From the NCBI GenBank assembly GCA_000004985.1, contig GG738876.1: a stretch of 64,000 bases of DNA; one strand, given 5' to 3'. The notes under the pieces are model-generated. The model had not been told where the DNA came from, did no database searches, and worked only from the letters and a program-made list of their open reading frames with translations. Of this stretch, positions 2,937 through 61,942 are shown piece by piece (within the stretch, counting starts at the first letter, position 1; each line of letters starts with the position of its first letter). This DNA is from Naegleria gruberi (taxonomy: Eukaryota). The position numbers were made by a program, and so were the translations under genes.

Positions 2937-4867
2937 TTAGTCGATATCCACATCTTCAAACTTTGGTTGAGCTGTGCTCGAAGTAGTTGGTCCACTGCCA
3001 CTAGAAGGGCCATAACCTCCTGGTGTTTGTTGTTGTTGAGCTTCTCCTTGATATAATTTGGTGATAATTGGAGCACATTTGTTTTCCAAATCCTTCTTTC
3101 TTCTTTCAATTTCGTCCTTTGAGGCCATGTTATTATTGTCAATCCAATTCATTGCTTCTTCACAGGCCTTCTTGATGACATTCTTGTCAGATTCTGAGAG
3201 TTTACCAGATAGATTTGGATCTTCTGTTGTTGATTTCATTTGGTAGGCGTAGGATTCGAATTGATTCTTGGAATCAATCTTTTCTCTCATTTCCTTATCT
3301 TCTTGTTCCATGTCTTTGGCCTTTCTCAACATTTCTTCAATTTCCTCCTTACTGAGACGACCCTTCTCATTGGTAATTGTAATGTTTTGAGTTTTACCAG
3401 ATGAAGTGTCCTTTGCTCCAACTTTCATGATACCATTAGAGTCAATTTCAAAGAAAACTTCAATCTTTGGTACGCCTCTTGGTGCAGGTGGAATTCCTTC
3501 CAAATTGAATTTACCCAACAAGTGATTATCCTTTGTTAATGTTCTCTCACCTTCAAAAACTTGAATAGTGACAGCTGTTTGATTATCAGAGTAGGTGGTA
3601 AACATTTCTGATTTCTTACATGGAATAGTTGTATTTCTCTCAATCAATTTAGCCATTACACCACCAGCAGTTTCAATACCCAAACTCAAAGGAGTCACAT
3701 CAATCAAAAGTACCTTAGTTTCCTTACCAGTCAAAACACCAGCTTGAACAGCAGCACCATAAGCAACAGCTTCATCAGGATTGATGGACTTACAGAGCTC
3801 CTTACCATTGAAGAATTCCTTAAGCATTTCTTGAACCTTTGGAATACGAGTTGAACCACCGACCAAGACAACATCATCAATTTGTGCCTTGTCCAAACCA
3901 GAATCTTGGAGAACCTTCTTAACTGGTTCGAAACAATTTCTGAACATATCCATATTCAATTGTTCGAATTTGGCTCTAGTCATTGGAATGTCCAAGTCAA
4001 TTCCATCAACAATTGAATCAACATTGATAGTTGAAGTGGAGGCAGATGACAAGTTTCTCTTTGTTCTTTCACAAGCAGTTCTCAATCTTCTCAAAGCTCT
4101 TGGATTATCATGAACGTCTCTTCTATACTTTCTCTTGAATTCTGTACAGCAGTATTCCACCATTCTTGAATCGAAATCTTCACCACCCAAGTGAGTATCA
4201 CCAGCAGTAGCTTTCACCTCAAAAACACCATCTTCAATATTTAGGATTGATACATCAAATGTACCACCACCCAAATCGAAAATCAAAACATACTTCTCAT
4301 CCTTCTTATTTAACCCATAGGCAATTGCAGCAGCTGTTGGTTCATTGATAATTCTCAAAACTTCTAGACCTGCAATTTGACCTGCATCCTTAGTGGCTTG
4401 TCTTTGAGAATCGTTAAAGTAAGCTGGAACAGTGACAACTGCCTTTTGGACCTTCTTTCCAACGTATTGTTCTGCAATATCTTTCATTTTGGTCAAGACC
4501 ATGGATGAGATTTGTTCTGGTGTGAAAATATGAGATTCTCCCTTGTACTCAACTGAATATATGGTTTATCATCTCCTTTGGTAATTACTTTGAAAGGCCA
4601 ATGCTTAATATCATTCTGAACACTTGTATCACTGAATTTTCTACCAATCAGACGTTTAGCATCAAACACTGTATTATGAGGATTCATTGCAACTTGATTT
4701 TTGGCAGCATCACCAATCAAACGTTCATCATCGGTGAATGCAACATAGGAGGGTGTAGTTCTATTACCTTGATCATTGGGTATAATCTCTACATTATCTC
4801 CCATATAAACACCAACACATGAATAAGTAGTACCCAAGTCAATTCCAATTGCTCCGTCAAATGACAT
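2937..4867 (-). CDS. Cytosolic Hsp70 (SSA/HSPA8-type), intronless. A single-nucleotide deletion near 4552/4553 splits the reading frame, so this is either a pseudogene or a sequencing indel.
   Basis: The N-terminal ORF 4493..4867 ('[20 protein letters not shown]...KPYIQ') and the C-terminal ORF 2937..4502 ('...[12 protein letters not shown]...[11 protein letters not shown]...PKFEDVDID') are the two halves of one Hsp70. The minus strand reads 'att cag ttg agt aca agg', where Hsp70 expects 'att cag Gtt gag tac aag' ([27 protein letters not shown]). The second frame encodes the expected sequence exactly. The frameshift alone already gives the stop at 4493..4495, and the shifted frame encodes a perfect Hsp70 continuation. 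Confidence 0.9.
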
Positions 4868-4954
4868 TTTGTTTCAATTTTTTTGATCTTTAAATTGCAA
4901 CCACCTTAACATTGTGTGAATATTTAAAGAAAAGAGCCAAAACTATTGTTAGAT

Positions 4955-4980
4955 TTCGGAATTAAGCTTTTGATTCCGAA
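4955..4980. promoter_or_regulatory. Palindrome TTCGGAAT-N10-ATTCCGAA about 90-110 bp upstream of the hsp70 ATG. It is a candidate stress or transcription-factor site and only loosely resembles a heat-shock element (HSE).
   Basis: A perfect 8-bp inverted repeat contains GAA/TTC units and lies in the hsp70 5' flank. A two-unit nTTCnnGAAn also occurs at ~5203..5214. Neither has three contiguous units. Confidence 0.25.
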
Positions 4981-5283
4981 CTTTAAATTCCTCAACCAGC
5001 AACCCTATTCTTTCCAATTATAGAAAATTTCTTTTTCTATTATTCATAAGATAATTTCATTCCGATTGTTCAACCTCAATAAGCATCTTTTTCATTCCGA
5101 TGCCATCACAGCAATATGCACCTTGATGAAAATCATCAAAACAATTTTCTTCGTTCCCTTTCAAATAACAAATCAATTTGAAATCTATCAAAGGTGTCTT
5201 CCATTTTCTTGAATGTGTTGCCTTTCTATTTTTATCATTTCCCTCCTTTTCGAAAAACCAATTTGAAAAAAAACGTCAACACA

Positions 5284-5724
5284 ATGCCTCCTTCCAGTTC
5301 ACCTTCGACCAATCAGCACCCTCAGAAAGTTCTTGCATTGCAAGAATTGGATACAACAACAAACTCTGTTTCATCTTCTTCTTCGGGTGGTGTAAAGACG
5401 AGTGGTAGTAGCACTCCTACAACATCAAATAATAAGAATACATCAACATCCGATCAAAAAGTTCCAACACCATCCAAAAAGAATGCAAAGCAACAACAGC
5501 CTCCACAACCTGCCTCCAAAAAGACTATTTCCCTCAAAACTAAAATTGCATTCAGGTTTGGTACGTTTAGCAAGGTACCAATCTTGTCGAGTATTGTCAG
5601 ATCAAATCCTGTACTTGTCAAACTTATCAATCCAAAGACATACAATAGAATCAAGATCAAGACTATTAGAAAGGATAACAAGACTATTATTGTTATCAGT
5701 AAGAGAAAGTTATTCAAGCCTTAA
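5284..5724 (+). CDS. Hypothetical Ser/Thr/Lys-rich small protein. The start is uncertain; the track ORF begins at 5194.
   Basis: ORF 5194..5724 has an internal ATG at 5284 ('MPPSSSPSTNQ...'). It is low-complexity and has a basic C-terminus. I find no recognisable domain. Its stop overlaps the stop of the convergent gene by 4 nt. Confidence 0.3.
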   Translation: MPPSSSPSTNQHPQKVLALQELDTTTNSVSSSSSGGVKTSGSSTPTTSNNKNTSTSDQKVPTPSKKNAKQQQPPQPASKKTISLKTKIAFRFGTFSKVPILSSIVRSNPVLVKLINPKTYNRIKIKTIRKDNKTIIVISKRKLFKP

Positions 5725-54774: not shown

Positions 54775-57378
54775 ATGTCGCTCAACTTGGATACCTCCCA
54801 ATTATCGGAGCTAGAAAGTTATCAACCTCCTCACTCACCAATGAGGAAGAAGCAACAAATTCTTGAGAAGAGTAAAAAGGGACATGAACGATGTGTTGAT
54901 CGTTTACAGCGTAAAATAATTTGTGATAAAATTGCCAATGAGGAAGCTAAAAAACAAGAACTACAAGAAAAGGCAAGGAAATTAAAAGAATGGAATAATT
55001 TAATGGAGACAGTCAAGTCCTATCAAATTCCTCTAATTGCCTCAATATCTACAAGTGCCGATGATGACACTCCATTTCCATTGTCACCAACAAAAAAAGT
55101 ATTGGCCAATGACAGTCTTCTATCTGCCCTTGAAAAGGAGGCTTATCAAAACGCTAGAGACGATAAAAAGGCTGAACTCGCAAAATTAGCAAATTTAGAG
55201 TAAGTTATTAATACCACTACCTGTCAGTTCATATTCTTGATTTATTTAATCGTCCTTATATTGATATTTATAGAGCCAAGGAGAGATGCACAACAAGAAA
55301 GAGATGGTATGAAGGAAAGACATCTTTCGAAAGCTTTAACAAATTGCTAAAATTCCAAAATGAAAGACGAAATGCTTACAATGAAGGACGATTTAAGATA
55401 ATGACATTGGATGAGGAATTCGATGAATTTGAGGACAATTTAGCAAAAAGCCAGCACCAAGTGGGTTTGAATCAATCAATTATTTCAGAAAAGACATCAA
55501 CAGGAACTGTTGTGGAAGATATTCAACCTCAAAAACAACCTTTAACACCTTTGGAAATTTCATCAGGAAGTATCGGAAATGTTAGAGGTGTTATCACACC
55601 AAAAGTATCATGTAAGTAATGGTTGATTTTCATTTTGTAACATTTCGGAAGTGGTTAAAAAGAGACTTGATTTTGTTGTTCAATATTTGGATAAGGAGGA
55701 GTTAGTAAGCACCCAAGAAATAAGGAAGATGGTTTATTTGATTTGTAGAAATGTGATAGAGAATCAAGAAGATTTACACAGAAAGAGAGTTAGGGTGTAC
55801 ATTTCCAAGGAGATGGATCAAATTGTTAAAAGAGTAATTTTTGCATGCAATACTAGACAAGCAATTCAAGGCTTCGTTCGCAATATTTGTGATGCAGTAA
55901 TTAGAAATCAAAATGAAATTGAAAGAAAAAAGAGGAATGCTAAGTTTATTTCCCAAGAGGTGGATCAAATTTTGAAGAGCATAATCCATTACAATGAGAC
56001 AAGACAAGAAATTGAGAGAGTGGTTTCTCTCACACTTAAAAATGTTATTGCAACACAAATTGATAAGCAAAATAGGGAATATGTTTCAAGGCAAGTTCAA
56101 TCAATTTTGGACAGAGTCATCCTTCACCAAACAACAAAGCAACAAATTGAAAAAACAGCTTTTGAAATTTGTCAAAACGTTCTTCACACCCAAGAAACAA
56201 GACAATATATTGAAAGAGTAGTCAGCAATGTATTTGAAAATGTTGTTAATCATCAAAATACTCTGTGCATCAAGAATGAAGTTGACCAAATATTTTCAAA
56301 TGTAATTCATACTCAAGAAACTAAACAAAATATTGAAAAGACAGTAGAAGAGATTTTGATGAAAGTAGTTGTCACTCAGGGAACAATACTGGAAGAAAAG
56401 AAGATACGATTGTTTATTGAAAAGGAAGTGACTCAAATTCTTAAAACCGTAGTTCAAACTCAAACAATCAACTCATTAGTCTCCAATATTATCTATAATG
56501 TAATAAGAACTCAAGAAGACAAACAAGATATTGAAATAGTGACCAGAGACATTATTTTCAATGTTATTAATCACCAAAATACCAAATTACAACAAGAAAG
56601 AAACCAAGCTGAAATATCAAAGGTGGTAGAGTCAATTGTATCCAATGTCATTCAATTCCAAGAGACAAAGAAATCCATTGAAACTTACGTCTCTCAAATT
56701 ATTGAAAATGTTATTTACTCTCAAAGCAACAAGCTCGAAGTTCAAAAAGTTGTTTGTGACATTATTCAAAATGTAATTTCACACCAAGTCAAAAAGAAAG
56801 ATTGCTTACTTATTTCTGCAGAAGTCAATTCTATAATTCAAAGAGTTATAGATTTCCAATTGTTTAAAAAAGAGGAAAATGTTGATTCTCCATTGAATTC
56901 AGAAAAGACAAGTGAAGGTGAAGCAGAAGTAGAAACAAGAGTTATTATTGAGCAAGAAGTTGAAAGAATTTTCAAGAATGTAATCTCCAACTGGGAGTAC
57001 CATAACAAGATTGCTAAAGATGAAAGCAACAAATTAATAATTCAGAAAGAAGTTGAAGAAATTGTAAAGATTGTAATTTCAAAATGGCAAACTGAAAGTA
57101 TGGAAATCAAACAGAAAACAATCGAGACCGAAGAAATTCAACAAGAATCTCAAGTTATTATCAAGCAATTTGTTGAGGAAGCGCTTGGAAATGTTGTGAA
57201 CCTCCAAAACTCTCTTTTTATCAAAAATGAAGTAGAGTCTATAATTTTAAGAGTTATTGGAAATTGGAAAGATGAAATCTTGTCAAATGACCAAAGTATC
57301 AAAACTTGCACTGTTGAACAAGTAATTTCTCAAGAAGTTCAAAAAATCATTCAAAATGTCATTTCAAGAAACCAATAA
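54775..57378 (+). CDS. Hypothetical coiled-coil/helical-repeat protein in three exons: 54775..55199, 55274..55611, 55652..57378. The C-terminal 575 aa is built from degenerate ~35-40-aa repeats.
   Basis: Intron 1 is 55200..55273 (GTAAGT..TTATAG, phase 2). Intron 2 is 55612..55651 (GTAAGT..GGAAG, 40 nt, phase 1). Both join the three track ORFs in frame. Exon 3 repeats the pattern 'V.Q(I/V)..V(I/V).HQ.TKQ.IE..V..I..NV(I/V)'. 829 aa. Confidence 0.5.
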
Positions 57379-57434
57379 TAAATGTATTTACAATTTTATA
57401 AGAGATTATCCTTGGCATTCCAAAAGGTTACAAT
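57377..57434. repeat. Dispersed repeat copy A (58 nt), in the 3'UTR of the 54775 gene. Its partner is at 60177..60234.
   Basis: 'aataaatgtatttacaattttataagagattatccttggcattccaaaaggttacaa' versus 60177..60234 'aataaatttatttacaattttataagatattatccttggcattccaaaaggttacaa' (56/58 identical). Confidence 0.6.
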
Positions 57435-57534
57435 TCCAATAAACTGTGTTTGCATTGGACTTTTAAATTTTTAAACCACTAAGTACAACAAATATTGTAA
57501 TTTATTCTTCTTCATAAAAGTTTTTGATTAAAAA

Positions 57535-59862
57535 ATGAATCCACTAGAAAGTGAATTACTCTCCAAAGCGATTGAATGCCTTCGGAGCAAGGTAATCACG
57601 TTAAACAATGAGGAATTTATCAAATGTTTAGAGAATACAGCTGAAGTTGTTGCTGATTATCAAATATTTGCAAAGACGAAACAAGAGTTAAATAATTTTG
57701 ATATTATATTTTCTATCAAGGACGATGATGATACTATTTGGAAAAAATTAATTAAATTCATGATGGCTTTTCATTTGACTTTAACTGTGAATAATATTGA
57801 TAACTTTTTGGAAGTGGAAGAAGCATTAAAAATTGTTGAAAAGTATTTGAAAATTCAAGATATGGATATGGTTTCTAATGAGATGATTTGTGTAGCTAAC
57901 TTGCTGATGTGGGTATTAGGGGATTTGAAAGACAAATCTTTGCAAGTTTCTAAGGGTGGATACTGTGAAAAATTCATTCAATTAGTGTTGGACTATTTCA
58001 AATATATTCACCACCAAATGAGAAAATCCAACCAAAATAATCAAGAATGGAAGCCAAGAGAAGATATTATAGAGTTATTCGCAGGAATTTATGAAAATTT
58101 ACCATTCAATCAATGGTATTGGCATGAATGGGATCATACAAAAGAATTAGGATTTGAATTTTTGGAACTTGTATATGAACTTGGAGAATATCCTCTATTT
58201 TCTGATAGTGACAATAGAATGCATCACTTATGCACATTTCTTGGCGAGGAAGCCATTAAAAAATTGGAATTATTAACTAATCGAGATGTAAAACAGATTG
58301 AGAATTTGAAACCAACAGATATTGTTCCTTTGGGAGAGATTTCACAGGGAACACCTGTTTGGAAGATTATCTTGAAAATAGCAAATGCAGTATTTGTTAT
58401 CTCATCAAAGCCACTCTTATCACCATCTATTCTTTTTGGATCCCAATATATCCAGTTATTTTTTGATACATTGAAAGTTTGTCCAGCTGAAATTGAGGAA
58501 ACTAAACTGGCGATTCATTTAATTGATGCATTAATCAGAATTTCAACAGTTATTACTCCAAGCCGTATGGACGATGAAGTGGAAGAGGAACATTTTACGA
58601 GATTGGAAGAGTCAAAAATTATTGCAACATTTATTGATTTCTATCATCTTGCACAAATCTCTTTGAAGGAACCAATTGTTAAAGCCATAACTATTTTAGT
58701 GCGTAAAATGCGTTCAATACGTGCCGATAATTTGGAGAAAACCTTAAATATATGTATTAACGAAGAAAAGATAACAAAAATGGATGAGCTACTTCTAGTC
58801 TGCTTTTCCATGTACGACTCTGATATAGCGAATCGGACAATACTGTCTAAACATATACACAAAATGATAGATAAGATTTTTGAATTTACTGTGACAGATA
58901 GAAATTTTTTTTACCAGTTTACCAAGTTTGATTTATTCAGAAATGCTGTAGATGACCCCTTATATGATCCATTCTTTAATCTGGACACAGAACGAATTAT
59001 TTCACAAATGAAAGGCACATTCAAAGATATGAGATCACTTGATAATTCACAATATTTGACAATCATGCGATGGTATAGTGGATTGATAGTAGCACTAAAA
59101 GTTGATCCCAAACACTTTGTTCAGGAGGTTTATGATGAATATTTCTACCTTGTGGAAAATCTACCGAAATATCTAATGTACCAAACTATACCGACTGAAA
59201 TATTCAGAGTAGTGCTTGGGCTCTGTATGGGCAATAGAGAATTTACTGAAAAAGTTAGCCATATAATATTTGAATTATTCTTTGATACTAACAAGATCGG
59301 AAAGGAGGAAATAGTACCCCTTATTGAATATTTACTAGTTAATGAGATTCTAACAAAACCAAATACACCAATTATCAAAAAAATCGAACAGAGAATTCCA
59401 CTTTTTATTAAGGAAATACGAGAAGGCAAAATATCATATTTAGTATTGCTCTGTATTGTTTATCCATACTTTCCAAACAAGATTTTTGACCTATTTAATG
59501 ATGTTTTTTTCTTACAGGCTATGATTTCATTCATTGACGAGTTTATAGATGATGAAGGAAAGATGAGCGTATTAAGAATTATCACAACCTCATTATTCCA
59601 AATTATGGAAGAATTGCTTGACCAAGAGAAGTATAAAGTCAGTGTGTTTAGTCCACCCGAAATGTTATACTCAATTGAGGAGTTCCTCACTCAGAGTGGT
59701 AATATAATAATTGACTGTCATAACAACCGAGTACGTCAGAAGTTAGAAATAGCAAAAGTGGAGCTTGTTGGCATGTATTCTGTCAACAGTGAAGAAGATG
59801 AAGAAGATGAAGAATATGACTATGATGACGAAGACGATGAAGAAGGTGAAGAAGATGATTAG
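57535..59862 (+). CDS. Hypothetical large alpha-helical protein with an acidic C-terminal tail.
   Basis: ATG in an A-run, continuous 775 aa. It ends 'EEDEEDEEYDYDDEDDEEGEEDD'. No catalytic motif is recognised. Confidence 0.45.
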   Translation: MNPLESELLSKAIECLRSKVITLNNEEFIKCLENTAEVVADYQIFAKTKQELNNFDIIFSIKDDDDTIWKKLIKFMMAFHLTLTVNNIDNFLEVEEALKIVEKYLKIQDMDMVSNEMICVANLLMWVLGDLKDKSLQVSKGGYCEKFIQLVLDYFKYIHHQMRKSNQNNQEWKPREDIIELFAGIYENLPFNQWYWHEWDHTKELGFEFLELVYELGEYPLFSDSDNRMHHLCTFLGEEAIKKLELLTNRDVKQIENLKPTDIVPLGEISQGTPVWKIILKIANAVFVISSKPLLSPSILFGSQYIQLFFDTLKVCPAEIEETKLAIHLIDALIRISTVITPSRMDDEVEEEHFTRLEESKIIATFIDFYHLAQISLKEPIVKAITILVRKMRSIRADNLEKTLNICINEEKITKMDELLLVCFSMYDSDIANRTILSKHIHKMIDKIFEFTVTDRNFFYQFTKFDLFRNAVDDPLYDPFFNLDTERIISQMKGTFKDMRSLDNSQYLTIMRWYSGLIVALKVDPKHFVQEVYDEYFYLVENLPKYLMYQTIPTEIFRVVLGLCMGNREFTEKVSHIIFELFFDTNKIGKEEIVPLIEYLLVNEILTKPNTPIIKKIEQRIPLFIKEIREGKISYLVLLCIVYPYFPNKIFDLFNDVFFLQAMISFIDEFIDDEGKMSVLRIITTSLFQIMEELLDQEKYKVSVFSPPEMLYSIEEFLTQSGNIIIDCHNNRVRQKLEIAKVELVGMYSVNSEEDEEDEEYDYDDEDDEEGEEDD

Positions 59863-60119
59863 AAAGCCAATTTTGGCTAAAGTTTCCGTTTCAATTTCAA
59901 TTAAATTCAAAAGGTTTCAAACAGAACATTGTCTTCAATAGACTGATTCAATCGTTTACAATGTTTGCAAATGATTTCAAAAATTCAAACCGATCTTAGA
60001 AATATCGACATTCTTCTGTTCAATTGAAAAGGTAATTTTAACGACAGGTCAATAAATCTATCACTAGCATATGTTTTATTGAATATTAGTGATGTTCTTG
60101 ACTGAAAAACAATCAACCC

Positions 60120-60234
60120 AAGGGTTGAAAAGGAGCTTACCAAAACGATAAAAAGGCTGAACTCTTTTCATGAAATCAATAAATTTATTTACAATTTTAT
60201 AAGATATTATCCTTGGCATTCCAAAAGGTTACAA
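60120..60234 (+). pseudogene. Internally deleted pseudo-copy of the 54775..57434 gene. About 50 nt of the exon-1 end is fused to the last CDS codons plus 3'UTR. Its 3' part overlaps the end of the FHA-RING CDS on the opposite strand.
   Basis: 60123..60165 'ggttgaaaaggagcttaccaaaacgataaaaaggctgaactc' matches 55133..55179 'cttgaaaaggaggcttatcaaaacgctagagacgataaaaaggctgaactc' with 1-nt and 9-nt gaps. It is then directly joined to 'ttttcatgaaatcaataaatttatttacaattttataag...', which matches 57361..57434. Confidence 0.4.
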
Positions 60235-61942
60235 GATTCTGTCTTGTTTGATCAAAGTCAATGACTCTTCTCATTGTCTTGATTTCTTGCCCAACAATCA
60301 TGTAGGCAACTGGAAGTTCTAAATTCTCGCAGGCAATCAGTAATTGTTCATTATTGCAATTAATGACATAATTCTCTGTGATTCCCACTAATTTACAAAA
60401 TTCGTCTCTGCACTTTCCAAAATACTGCTTCACTCCAGTCTTGAAAGTTCTCTTCTCTTCCAATTTCCATCTGACTGTAATGTCCAAGAATTTAATCTTC
60501 TTAATCTTGGCATTTTCAACTAGAGTTGCAAGTTTTGCAAAGTTTTCATCATCTTTAATTTTGATTGCCTTGATCCTTTCTTCGTAGTCTTTGACATCTT
60601 CCTCTGGAGCACAATTTTCAACATAGATTTTCAGTAAAGTTTCAACGGCTCTGTTTGGAGCTGAAGATTGGCTCAACTTCTTTCTGCACAAAGGACAGGA
60701 CTTATTCTTGGCCAACCAATCATGCAGACATTTTCTGCAAAAGTTGTGCCCACATTCCAAGACAGTTGGTTCATACATTAAATTACAACAAATTGTGCAG
60801 CTGAATTCATTACAACAATCTTGAGCGAATTTGTTGAACTTTTCTTCCTTCAGCTTCTTTGAACCTGATTCAAAGTCAACTGATTCTTCTTTCTCTTCTC
60901 TCACCCTCTTGCCGGTTAATGGCTGTGGTTGGGTAGATTTTGGAGTGACTACAACTGGTGGCTCTGTAAACTCTTCATCAACCTTGAGATTAATTGCTGA
61001 TTTGGTTGGGTTCAAGTTTTTTGGAATGAATTGATTTTGGAGCATTTCAAATTTGTACATGAATGCATTCTTGACATTTCCAATCAGGGCACATTTCCAT
61101 TCTTGCTCAGTTGAGAAATCACTTCTTCTCTTTCCATTCTCAAGAATTATATAATCTCCAACCAAAGCTTTCACTCCTCCCGTAATAATTATCAAATCAC
61201 CATGTTTCAAATCAGTATCCTTGCCAATCTTTTTACCATTCAATAAAGTTCCATTGGTGCTTCCCAAATCTGAAATCAAAAAGGTGTAATCATTCATCTT
61301 GACAATATCTGCATGGTTTCTTGAAACAAATTTTGATAAAGTATTCGACACAATCTTGACATGGCTGTTCAAACCTCTTCCAATATTAATTTTGGTGTCA
61401 GAAAGGAGAAATTCAGGTGGAGCATCACTACATGCTTCACCAACAAGTCTCAATCTTCCCCAACAAGGACCCTTTGGTGCTATTGTTGATGATGCAGAAA
61501 TACAATTATTGGAAACTGAACTTGTCTTGCTCACAGTAGTGGATTGGTTTGCTTTCTGTTGCATATTTGCAAACTTTGGAGGTGGCATGCTTGTAAATGG
61601 AGATATCAATGTTGTAGAGGAACCATTCACACTCGTATTATACTGAAATCCCTGATTGAACATATTCATAATCATTGGTGGTGGTGGGGGAGGAAGAGAA
61701 TTCCTCATCAAATTGCCAGATATGTTTTTATTACCTTGCTGCATGTTAGTAGTACTACTTGTAGGAGTAGTGGAAATGATCAAGTTTGGAGTGGTAAATT
61801 CTTCCATGCTATTCATTTCCTCAAATAATCCCTTTGGAATGGTTGAGGAGGATGAGGAGGCTGGCGAGCAATTGGAATTTCTGTTCATCATTAGAGAATT
61901 AACGGTTGTGGTGCTTGAAGTGGTGGTAGTGGTGGTGGACAT
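60197..61942 (-). CDS. FHA-domain plus RING-finger E3 ubiquitin ligase (Dma1/CHFR-like checkpoint ligase).
   Basis: ATG at 61942. The N-terminus is poly-T/S low-complexity. The FHA domain reads 'GRLRLVGEACSDAPPEFLLSDTKINIGRGLNSHVKI...SRNHADIV...LGSTNGTLLNGKKI'. The RING C3HC4 reads 'CTICCNLMYEPTVLECGHNFCRKCLHDWLAKNKSCPLCR'. The last 12 codons 'VTFWNAKDNIL*' lie inside dispersed repeat copy B. Confidence 0.8.
   Translation of the reverse strand: MSTTTTTTSSTTTVNSLMMNRNSNCSPASSSSSTIPKGLFEEMNSMEEFTTPNLIISTTPTSSTTNMQQGNKNISGNLMRNSLPPPPPPMIMNMFNQGFQYNTSVNGSSTTLISPFTSMPPPKFANMQQKANQSTTVSKTSSVSNNCISASSTIAPKGPCWGRLRLVGEACSDAPPEFLLSDTKINIGRGLNSHVKIVSNTLSKFVSRNHADIVKMNDYTFLISDLGSTNGTLLNGKKIGKDTDLKHGDLIIITGGVKALVGDYIILENGKRRSDFSTEQEWKCALIGNVKNAFMYKFEMLQNQFIPKNLNPTKSAINLKVDEEFTEPPVVVTPKSTQPQPLTGKRVREEKEESVDFESGSKKLKEEKFNKFAQDCCNEFSCTICCNLMYEPTVLECGHNFCRKCLHDWLAKNKSCPLCRKKLSQSSAPNRAVETLLKIYVENCAPEEDVKDYEERIKAIKIKDDENFAKLATLVENAKIKKIKFLDITVRWKLEEKRTFKTGVKQYFGKCRDEFCKLVGITENYVINCNNEQLLIACENLELPVAYMIVGQEIKTMRRVIDFDQTRQNLVTFWNAKDNIL

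Follow-up and report, generated by a model that had tools for sequence, protein, structure and literature searches.

How a protein-coding gene can come to end inside what looks like a duplicated piece of its neighbour is the question raised by one locus of Naegleria gruberi, in a stretch of 64,000 nt of contig GG738876.1 (assembly GCA_000004985.1) that is referred to here as the window. Three genes are concerned. The first (gene 1, 54775–57378, plus strand) has exons at 54775–55199, 55274–55611 and 55652–57378, and its spliced model gives the translation of a repeat protein of 829 aa without internal stops. The second (gene 2, 57535–59862, plus strand) is an intronless orphan ORF of 775 aa with an acidic tail. 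The third (60197–61942, minus strand) encodes a CHFR-like FHA-RING E3 ligase of 581 aa, identified from its ORF, its orthologs and its Pfam domains (FHA, 3e-16; RING, 2.5e-10). A sequence-only reading of the locus had proposed that an internally deleted and decayed duplicate of gene 1 lies downstream of gene 2 and supplies the C-terminus and the stop codon of the convergently transcribed ligase.

The duplicate had been recognised as two pieces of gene 1 in their original order and on their original strand. Local alignment against gene 1 and a blastn search (query 59863–60400, subject the whole window) recovered these two collinear matches and nothing further at E<0.01. The longer of them, at 60163–60234, aligned with 57359–57433 at 89% identity over 75 columns, with one 3-nt gap (E=6.6e-23). 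Its source, piece b or copy A (57359–57434, plus strand), comprises the last 6 codons of gene 1, the stop and the 3' flank. The downstream counterpart, piece b' or copy B (60163–60235, plus strand), holds a relic of the last codons and stop of gene 1 and then, on the other strand, the 3' UTR, the stop and the last 12 codons of the ligase gene. The gene 1 reading of copy B is disrupted by a change from AGA to TGA as well as by the 3-nt gap. Over their last 57 nt b and b' share 55 positions; over the final 58 nt the identity is 55/58 in place of the 56/58 first reported, since 57434 is T and 60235 is G, and 56/58 is obtained with the T that a close strain carries at that position. The shorter match aligned 60125–60164 (piece a', plus strand) with 55130–55179 in exon 1 (piece a, plus strand), with one substitution and gaps of 1 and 9 nt (E=1.6e-5). 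The match and both indels are as originally described, with limits revised from 60123–60165; its source is not the end of the exon, as had been thought, because exon 1 ends at 55199 and piece a stops 20 nt before the splice donor. Pieces a' and b' abut with a 2-nt overlap, 'TC', and the 2179 nt that lie between their sources (55180–57358) are absent downstream, in agreement with the gap of about 2.2 kb noted before.

Piece a' scored 45 against gene 1, compared with a mean of 26.7 (sd 3.0, maximum 40) for 1000 dinucleotide-preserving shuffles of 59863–60162, none of which reached the observed score; the possibility that the exon-1-like match was due to chance, admitted when it was first described, can be dismissed. 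A 47-nt core occurs twice in the window, with no occurrence expected by chance. The extent proposed for the copy, 59863–60240, was too generous: similarity to gene 1 is at chance level in 59863–60124 (28, against a shuffle mean of 27), and the copy is confined to 60125–60234. The two pieces are significant, collinear and in the same orientation, but at 110 nt, about 4% of gene 1, they hardly amount to a pseudo-copy of a gene. Nothing shows that the middle of gene 1 ever existed there, with no trace of it in 59863–60124, in the rest of the DNA between the two copies or in the close strain, which has the two pieces only. Over about 112 aligned nt the pairs a/a' and b/b' show only 6 substitutions; set against about 45–55% at the protein level between species, this means that the split of one sequence into two was recent.

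That the strand opposite b' forms the end of the ligase gene was confirmed. The minus strand at 60197–60259 reads ...QNLVTFWNAKDNIL followed by a stop, the last 12 codons and the stop being encoded within b', and the minus strand of copy A at 57396–57434 reads IVTFWNAKDNLL followed by a stop, both as claimed. The origin assigned to these codons, however, was wrong. The C-terminal motif (D/T)FWNA(K/E/A)DN(L/I) was found in the orthologs from N. lovaniensis, N. fowleri and one metagenomic Naegleria-like species, and a weaker form, DFYSAGDNL, in the FHA-RING ortholog of a second metagenomic species; overall these four proteins are only about 46–56% identical. F573, A576, D578 and N579 are invariant in 6/6 aligned FHA-RING sequences, those of N. 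lovaniensis and N. fowleri included, and W574 is retained in five (Y in P0005). Since the motif has been kept in orthologs of such low overall identity, its codons predate the duplication and belong to the ancestral FHA-RING gene. The C-terminus of the ligase is, on this comparison of protein sequences, ancestral and not derived from duplicated gene 1 DNA. Conversely, the copy at 57396–57434 (minus strand) is a non-functional fossil of the ligase end and not its source; no gene is attached to it, and no minus-strand ORF continuing from it is present in the ORF list. The fossil retains the L of 'DNL', as in the DNLFF of the orthologs, where the functional copy has 'DNI'.

Gene order in related genomes also speaks against a borrowed C-terminus. 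In N. lovaniensis (locus L001) the orthologs of p1360, p221 and gene 1 are followed by the convergent FHA-RING gene, with 121 nt between the two stops. In a third Naegleria-like species (L005) the order is p221 ortholog, gene 1 ortholog and convergent FHA-RING gene, and the last two overlap by 15 nt of coding sequence. Gene 2 is absent between the gene 1 ortholog and the ligase gene in both. The gene 1 orthologs were found by tblastn in loci fetched through FHA-RING; the full spliced gene 1 returned no homolog when used as a query against a word-indexed database, and a Pfam search with it returned no family. Exons 1 and 2 of gene 1 are homologous to a 425-aa gene of N. lovaniensis and to exons in L005. 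Piece a, which encodes ...DDKKAELAKLANLE, is the ancestral copy because this motif is common to the orthologs (DEKKKEELIKLATLE, EEKKKGLISLATIE). Gene 1 and the FHA-RING gene were thus ancestrally immediate tail-to-tail neighbours, and the 3' flank of gene 1 was always antisense to the last codons of the ligase.

The region shared by the two genes includes the candidate poly(A) signals of both. A perfect palindrome, AATAAATTTATT, at 60178–60189 presents AATAAA on the plus strand (60178–60183) and on the minus strand (60189–60184) and may have served the ancestral convergent pair as a two-way poly(A) signal. Copy A reads AATAAATGTATT, having lost the minus-strand AATAAA and kept only that of the plus strand (57377–57382), which overlaps the stop of gene 1 (57376–57378). 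According to the text of a study of N. gruberi, the poly(A) signal is AAUAAA with cleavage about 15–20 nt downstream, the median 3' UTR is 39 nt, dual-use stop/AAUAAA sites are found, and UGUA is an upstream element (PMC11529991). The overlap of stop and signal in gene 1, and likewise in its L005 ortholog, resembles these dual-use sites, and the predicted 3' UTRs of about 20–35 nt, together with a UGUA just upstream of the FHA-RING signal, resemble the ultrashort 3' UTRs of that account (PMC11529991). Unlike the signals described in the same text (PMC11529991), one palindromic 12-mer appears here to be shared by two convergent genes as the candidate signal on both strands. We infer that gene 1 and the FHA-RING gene would use these candidate signals.

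Between the two copies of the shared region lies a segment of 2,690 nt (57435–60124, plus strand) that has no counterpart at this site in L001 or L005 and is present in the close strain (contigs L002 and L006). No other similarity to it and no second copy were found within the 64-kb window, and its ends are not paired by inverted or direct repeats. Gene 2, which it carries, matched no Pfam family at E<=0.01 and contained no transposase or other domain. A word-indexed search with gene 2 found no homolog, and an exhaustive HMMER search of 1.84 billion representatives matched only one fragment, 98% identical, of the close strain, which has the same gene and is itself 98–99% identical. A single-sequence AlphaFold model of the protein was all helical and of low confidence (mean pLDDT 51). 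The GC3 and codon usage of gene 2 match those of neighbouring genes; with this native composition gene 2 is not recent foreign DNA, and a foreign or viral origin was rejected. The two strains differ in gene 2 by 3 synonymous and 13 non-synonymous changes, a ratio of about 1, and one close-strain contig has a 1-nt deletion inside the gene, so its functional status is uncertain. In layout the close strain agrees with the window, with the same gene 2, a'b' and FHA-RING gene; L006 starts 38 nt upstream of the gene 2 ATG, and the comparison there begins downstream of copy A. In L002 the non-coding part has lost 4 nt from a' and gained 66 nt by tandem duplication, changes that look neutral. A 16-nt palindrome, TCAACCCAAGGGTTGA, spans the junction of the insert with a' (60113–60128); the scan for bacterial-type promoters and terminators in which it was found is irrelevant to a eukaryote and served no purpose beyond flagging it.

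The arrangement is probably best explained by insertion of this segment into the shared 3'-end module of a convergent gene pair, with duplication of the module. In the ancestral state gene 1 (plus strand) and the FHA-RING gene (minus strand) were immediate convergent neighbours, with stops that would have been only about 15 nt apart, the poly(A) signal and short 3' UTR of each lying antisense to the last codons of the other and AATAAATTTATT standing at the centre. In the window lineage the 2.69-kb segment with the orphan gene would then have entered the module, and the same event would have duplicated this module of about 75 nt. Copy b (57359–57434) would have stayed with gene 1 as its stop, AATAAA and 3' UTR, and copy b' (60163–60235) with the FHA-RING gene, for which it provides the last 12 codons, the stop, UGUA and AATAAA; neither gene could have survived intact unless the insertion also duplicated the overlap. 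Between the insert and b' lies the patch a', 40 nt copied from exon 1 at 2.2 kb upstream and joined to b' at the 2-nt microhomology. Once freed from constraint the copies would have decayed, copy A by loss of the minus-strand AATAAA and copy B by the stop and indels in its gene 1 codons. On this model gene 1 transcripts would be cleaved near 57397–57405 and those of the FHA-RING gene near 60164–60169, and gene 2 would end beyond an AATAAA at 60051–60056 or be read through to that at 60178–60183.

Duplication and insertion would most likely go back to the repair of a single break with template switching, by a process of the kind that leaves filler DNA or relies on microhomology. Microhomology amounts to the 2 nt ('TC') at a'/b', too short to tell from chance, and none is evident at the other two junctions; neither it nor the 16-nt palindrome is long enough to be diagnostic. 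In its most specific form the proposal is tentative: a single complex template-switching event may have placed the lineage-specific 775-aa gene exactly into the shared module and duplicated the module, splitting a palindromic two-way signal into two one-way signals. Other routes for the added DNA were rejected. Against retroposition, the a/b junction does not fall at exon boundaries, piece a ending 20 nt short of the donor, and a poly(A) tract is absent; against Helitron-type and TIR-type transposition, the ends of the insert are without the expected motifs or repeats.

Piece a' could alternatively be the remnant of a larger, 2.3-kb tandem duplicate (55130–57434) that later suffered an internal deletion. 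Extended to the whole locus, this becomes a series of three independent events starting from the same ancestral adjacency, namely the tandem duplication, a later insertion of gene 2 and a still later deletion of 2.18 kb. Tandem duplication and deletion are both common, and a' and b' look exactly like a gene 1 internally deleted at a 2-nt microhomology. We nevertheless regard this series as unlikely, given that neither strain has any trace of the middle of gene 1 and that the gene 2 segment would have had to hit the exact boundary of b and a' without the loss of a single base, which is improbable unless insertion and duplication were simultaneous. A separate arrival of gene 2 after a plain tandem duplication would have to hit the b|a' junction, about 1 in 2,300 of the dispensable DNA, and on this reasoning one event is favoured. 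No pre-insertion allele or intermediate was found, the comparison strain (n=1) having the same layout. A degenerate pattern of the b block, run against 241 million JGI metagenome records, yielded 10 loci with a GC content of 0.24–0.44, none of them similar to window proteins and all regarded as chance matches; no pre-insertion allele was seen in these metagenome contigs.

Less probable still is an ancestral presence of gene 2 at this site followed by its loss in the other Naegleria lineages, with a'b' arising later and independently as a micro-duplication or an ectopic conversion tract. By FHA-RING identity the window lineage is about equally far from all other species (0.47–0.57), and it may be the outgroup to all species compared; if so, one loss elsewhere formally requires no more steps than one gain here, and parsimony alone cannot separate the two. 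What tells against the loss is that near-identical b and b' flank gene 2, so that both flanks were recently one sequence, and that this sequence is exactly the junction of gene 1 and the FHA-RING gene in other species. A loss would moreover have had to recreate the tight tail-to-tail junction, and the close strain apart, no homolog of gene 2 was detectable anywhere searched.

The duplication of gene 1 or its 3' part downstream of gene 2, followed by internal deletion and co-option of the remnant as a new C-terminus and stop for the ligase, is very improbable. It would account for the presence of gene-1-derived pieces at the 3' end of the ligase gene, one of which encodes its last 12 codons and stop. 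Yet the motif FWNA.DN(L/I) occurs in the ligase orthologs of species that have neither the duplication nor gene 2, the gene 1 ortholog already abuts or overlaps the ligase end in those species, and chance cannot turn an unrelated 3' UTR into 12 codons that match a conserved protein end. The A/T-rich sequence and the short, gapped exon-1-like match might suggest a small dispersed repeat or a low-complexity coincidence unconnected with the history of gene 1. This is scarcely credible in view of both E-values within the window, the shuffle result, the occurrence of the core in only two copies in 64 kb, the derivation of both pieces from a single gene with order and strand preserved, and the metagenome pattern scan, in which every match was unrelated and due to chance.

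Filler DNA and templated insertions arise at the junctions of double-strand-break repair by polymerase-theta-mediated end joining and by microhomology-mediated break-induced replication or template switching. The locus resembles these in having, where a larger insertion joins its flank, a 40-nt patch copied in cis from some 2 kb away, together with a 2-nt overlap that may be microhomology and a duplicated flanking target. It departs from them in its 75-nt flank duplication, longer than is typical, and its minimal microhomologies, and the mechanism is deduced from one junction that has already diverged by about 5%. The locus also recalls fragmentary duplicated pseudogenes (gene relics), in that pieces of the gene next door persist without function, their orientation unchanged, and carry indels and a premature stop; unlike these, only about 4% of the parent is represented, and in one piece the opposite strand is functional coding sequence of a different gene, the overlap being ancestral. 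Direct repeats of the target (b ... b') flank the insert as in transposon insertion with target-site duplication, but terminal inverted repeats and a transposase are lacking, no second copy was found in the window, the repeat measures about 75 nt, and the extra patch a' stands between insert and b'. Gene 2 itself is like other taxonomically restricted (orphan) genes in being a long intact ORF without a known domain and with homologs only in near-identical strains. Its native codon usage argues against recent foreign acquisition, and its 775 codons are too many for an easy de novo origin.

The locus is a modest and ordinary kind of rearrangement scar, and the borrowed C-terminus that made it attractive is not what happened. 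For annotation, the antisense 'mini-ORF' in the 3' flank of gene 1 is to be treated as a fossil, neither a' nor b' is an exon, and gene 2 is an orphan of uncertain status. In Naegleria, genes that lie tail to tail can have their last codons and a palindromic candidate poly(A) signal in common, and an insertion between such overlapping genes is tolerated when the shared module of about 75 nt is duplicated, which bears on how compact genomes gain genes. If a single template-switching event was indeed responsible, the locus would be a dated, sequence-resolved example of a gene-dense protist genome gaining a gene between overlapping neighbours with neither broken, and would provide a natural experiment on two-way terminators.

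The window is eukaryotic and AT-rich (~30-37% G+C). Gene 1, encoding a repeat protein of 829 amino acids, was modelled on the plus strand as three exons (54775-55199, 55274-55611 and 55652-57378) with splice sites taken from the reading frame alone; the model requires a second intron of 40 nt (55612-55651, GTAAGT...AG). ORF scans identified gene 2, an intronless plus-strand ORF of 775 amino acids (57535-59862), and a convergent minus-strand ORF of 581 amino acids (60197-61942) encoding an E3 ligase with FHA (3e-16) and RING (2.5e-10) domains. Exon 3 of gene 1 (~55652-57378) contains many diverged internal repeats of variable spacing, including family D1, with 63-198 nt between copies and a motif like QETKQ.IE..V..I..NVI. 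The gene 1 protein, at 829 aa, is longer than the annotated N. lovaniensis ortholog (425 aa), which suggests that the repeats expanded in its own lineage.

Two pieces of gene 1 recur beside the end of the ligase gene, in the order and on the strand that they have in gene 1. Three methods were concordant: local alignment of gene 1 against the 3' flank of gene 2, which recovered both pieces, a repeat finder (family D8) and a blastn search of the whole window with 59863-60400. Piece b' (60163-60234) matched piece b (57359-57433; E=6.6e-23 within the 64-kb window) with ~93-96% identity, the gene 2 segment lying between them. The sequence-only reading had counted 56/58 identical final positions; the figure is 55/57 over the last 57 nt, positions 57434 and 60235 being unlike in the window. 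Piece a' (60125-60164) matched piece a in exon 1 (55130-55179; E=1.6e-5) with one substitution and gaps of 1 nt and 9 nt; this match is real, but piece a ends 20 nt before the exon 1 donor at 55200 and not at the exon end, as had been proposed. When 59863-60162 was subjected to 1000 dinucleotide-preserving shuffles, scores against gene 1 were 26.7 ± 3.0 (maximum 40) and none of the 1000 reached the observed 45. A span of 59863-60240 had been claimed for the copy, of which 60125-60234 matches gene 1 but 59863-60124 does not exceed chance similarity in the shuffle comparison. Blastn with 59863-60400 gave no further match at E<0.01 in the 64 kb, and a 47-nt core is present in exactly two copies within the window. 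At the a'/b' junction a 2-nt 'TC' is common to both pieces and 2179 nt of gene 1 are absent, in agreement with the ~2.2 kb estimated from sequence. The minus-strand translations were also as first read, IVTFWNAKDNLL followed by a stop for 57396-57434 and ...QNLVTFWNAKDNIL followed by a stop for 60197-60259.

Relatives of the ligase were gathered by searching protein sequences with the FHA-RING gene product, and were aligned. Orthologs came from Naegleria lovaniensis and N. fowleri (~46-50% identity), two more were metagenomic (~46-56% identity), and an ENA metagenome contained a 99%-identical protein. The C-terminus was conserved right up to its end in this alignment (...DFDQTRQNLVTFWNAKDNIL in the window; ...DFDQTRQRLQDFWNAEDNLFFY, ...LLNFWNAADNLFFI and ...LMDFYSAGDNLFFC in relatives), with F573, A576, D578 and N579 invariant, and the 12 codons within b' are therefore ancestral ligase sequence rather than acquired. 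The ligase of the window lineage ends in ...DNIL, three residues shorter than the ...DNLFF(Y/I/C) of orthologs; both copies share the shortening, which is thus older than the duplication. The fossil in copy A, the copy at the 3' end of gene 1, retains 'DNL', the ortholog state, and the working ligase now has 'DNI'.

In N. lovaniensis (L001) the gene order is the orthologs of the 1360-aa and 221-aa genes of the window, a 425-aa gene and the convergent FHA-RING gene. The 425-aa gene was identified as the gene 1 ortholog by tblastn and frame translations; exon 1 ends align (...DEKKKEELIKLATLE with ...DDKKAELAKLANLE), as do exon 2 starts (AKERCTIRKR... with AKERCTTRKR...). Its stop and that of the ligase are 121 nt apart, with an AATAAA between them on each strand. 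A third species (L005) has, in order, the 221-aa-gene ortholog, the gene 1 ortholog and the convergent FHA-RING gene; the coding sequences of the latter two overlap by 15 nt, and the gene 1 ortholog stop overlaps an AATAAA. Nothing resembling gene 2 was found between gene 1 and the ligase in either locus. In a fourth, metagenomic species (L003) the ligase is packed tail-to-tail against a different gene, encoding an LRR protein, its TAA stop directly abutting the TTA stop of that gene with zero intergenic bases; the FHA and RING parts are annotated there (3934-5482) as two genes of 171 aa and 333 aa. By FHA-RING identities the window lineage is roughly equidistant from all other species, so that the polarity of the change is argued from the scar and from the orphan status of gene 2, not from parsimony.

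Gene 2 is an orphan: it belongs to no Pfam family, had no match in a word-indexed search, and in an exhaustive HMMER search across 1.84 billion representatives matched solely a 98%-identical fragment, which belongs to the metagenome that also contains the 99%-identical ligase. Its composition is native (GC3 0.29; relative codon usage r=0.79-0.89 vs neighbouring genes). A single-sequence structure model was all-helical and unreliable (pLDDT 51). Between strains, 3 synonymous and 13 non-synonymous differences were counted in gene 2, a ratio of about 1 from small counts, and 18.5 and 9.5, respectively, in the ligase (pN/pS 0.13). A contig of the close strain (L002) includes the end of gene 2 (3092-3727), the a'b' pieces as in the window and the ligase gene, and has T at the position equivalent to 60235, matching copy A. 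Its intergenic region differs from the window by a 4-nt deletion within a' and a 66-nt tandem duplication (~2790-2860; window ~59955-60005); gene 2 itself has a 3-nt indel in the GAA/GAT repeat of the acidic tail. On another contig (L006, position 897) gene 2 has a 1-nt deletion in a TTT run (window position 58393), which represents a frameshift or, alternatively, an error in the assembly.

We conclude that the repeat is real; it is best read as a scar left when an insertion parted two convergent genes whose ends overlapped ancestrally. The ligase body, like the left flank of gene 1, is in its ancestral position. In the simplest, four-part history, the ancestor would have had a single gene 1/ligase junction with stops ~15 nt apart (copy B, the b' copy, has a relic TAA at ~60180-60182, the ligase stop being 60197-60199); a segment of 2,690 nt (57435-60124) would have been inserted into it, the shared ~75-nt module duplicated, and a 40-nt exon 1 patch left between insert and b'. 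Duplication and insertion are favoured as one event, for example template-switching repair with filler DNA, and the loss of the gene 1 middle may have been part of it or a later microhomology deletion. A plain tandem duplication of 55130-57434 as the first step would have required gene 2 to be placed precisely at the b|a' junction afterwards, which is why the single event is preferred. Metagenome contigs scanned with a degenerate pattern yielded unrelated matches only and no intermediate allele. The central claim of the sequence-only reading, that a decayed gene 1 duplicate donated a new C-terminus to the ligase, is excluded, as orthologs conserve that C-terminus to the last residues and the b' codons are ancestral to the ligase. 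A 16-nt palindrome, TCAACCCAAGGGTTGA (60113-60128), exactly spans the junction of insert and exon 1 patch; it may be coincidental, or a hairpin that took part in the rearrangement.

The N. gruberi direct-RNA study describes AAUAAA as the poly(A) signal with cleavage ~15-20 nt downstream, a UGUA upstream element, a median 3' UTR of 39 nt and 'dual-use' stops overlapping AAUAAA in ~11-13% of genes (PMC11529991). The gene 1 stop (57376-57378) overlaps an AATAAA (57377-57382). Within copy B, a perfect 12-nt palindrome, AATAAATTTATT, occupies 60178-60189 between the two convergent stops; its plus-strand AATAAA is a gene 1 relic and its minus-strand AATAAA is that of the ligase, with TGTA just upstream. 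Copy A reads AATAAATGTATT at 57377-57388, a T-to-G change destroying the minus-strand hexamer (AATACA), and the gene 1 codons of copy B carry a premature TGA and a 3-nt gap. We infer AATAAATTTATT to be a candidate two-way poly(A) signal of the convergent pair. Before the insertion, the overlap between the gene 1 and ligase mRNAs would have been a few tens of nucleotides long, with each gene's signal opposite the other's 3' end; afterwards, each module copy would need one strand only. The event, a local duplication plus filler at the junction of a rearrangement, is of a known kind, and the instance is new; it is mildly interesting for its palindrome, a candidate two-way poly(A) signal, and for the orphan 775-aa gene brought by the insertion.
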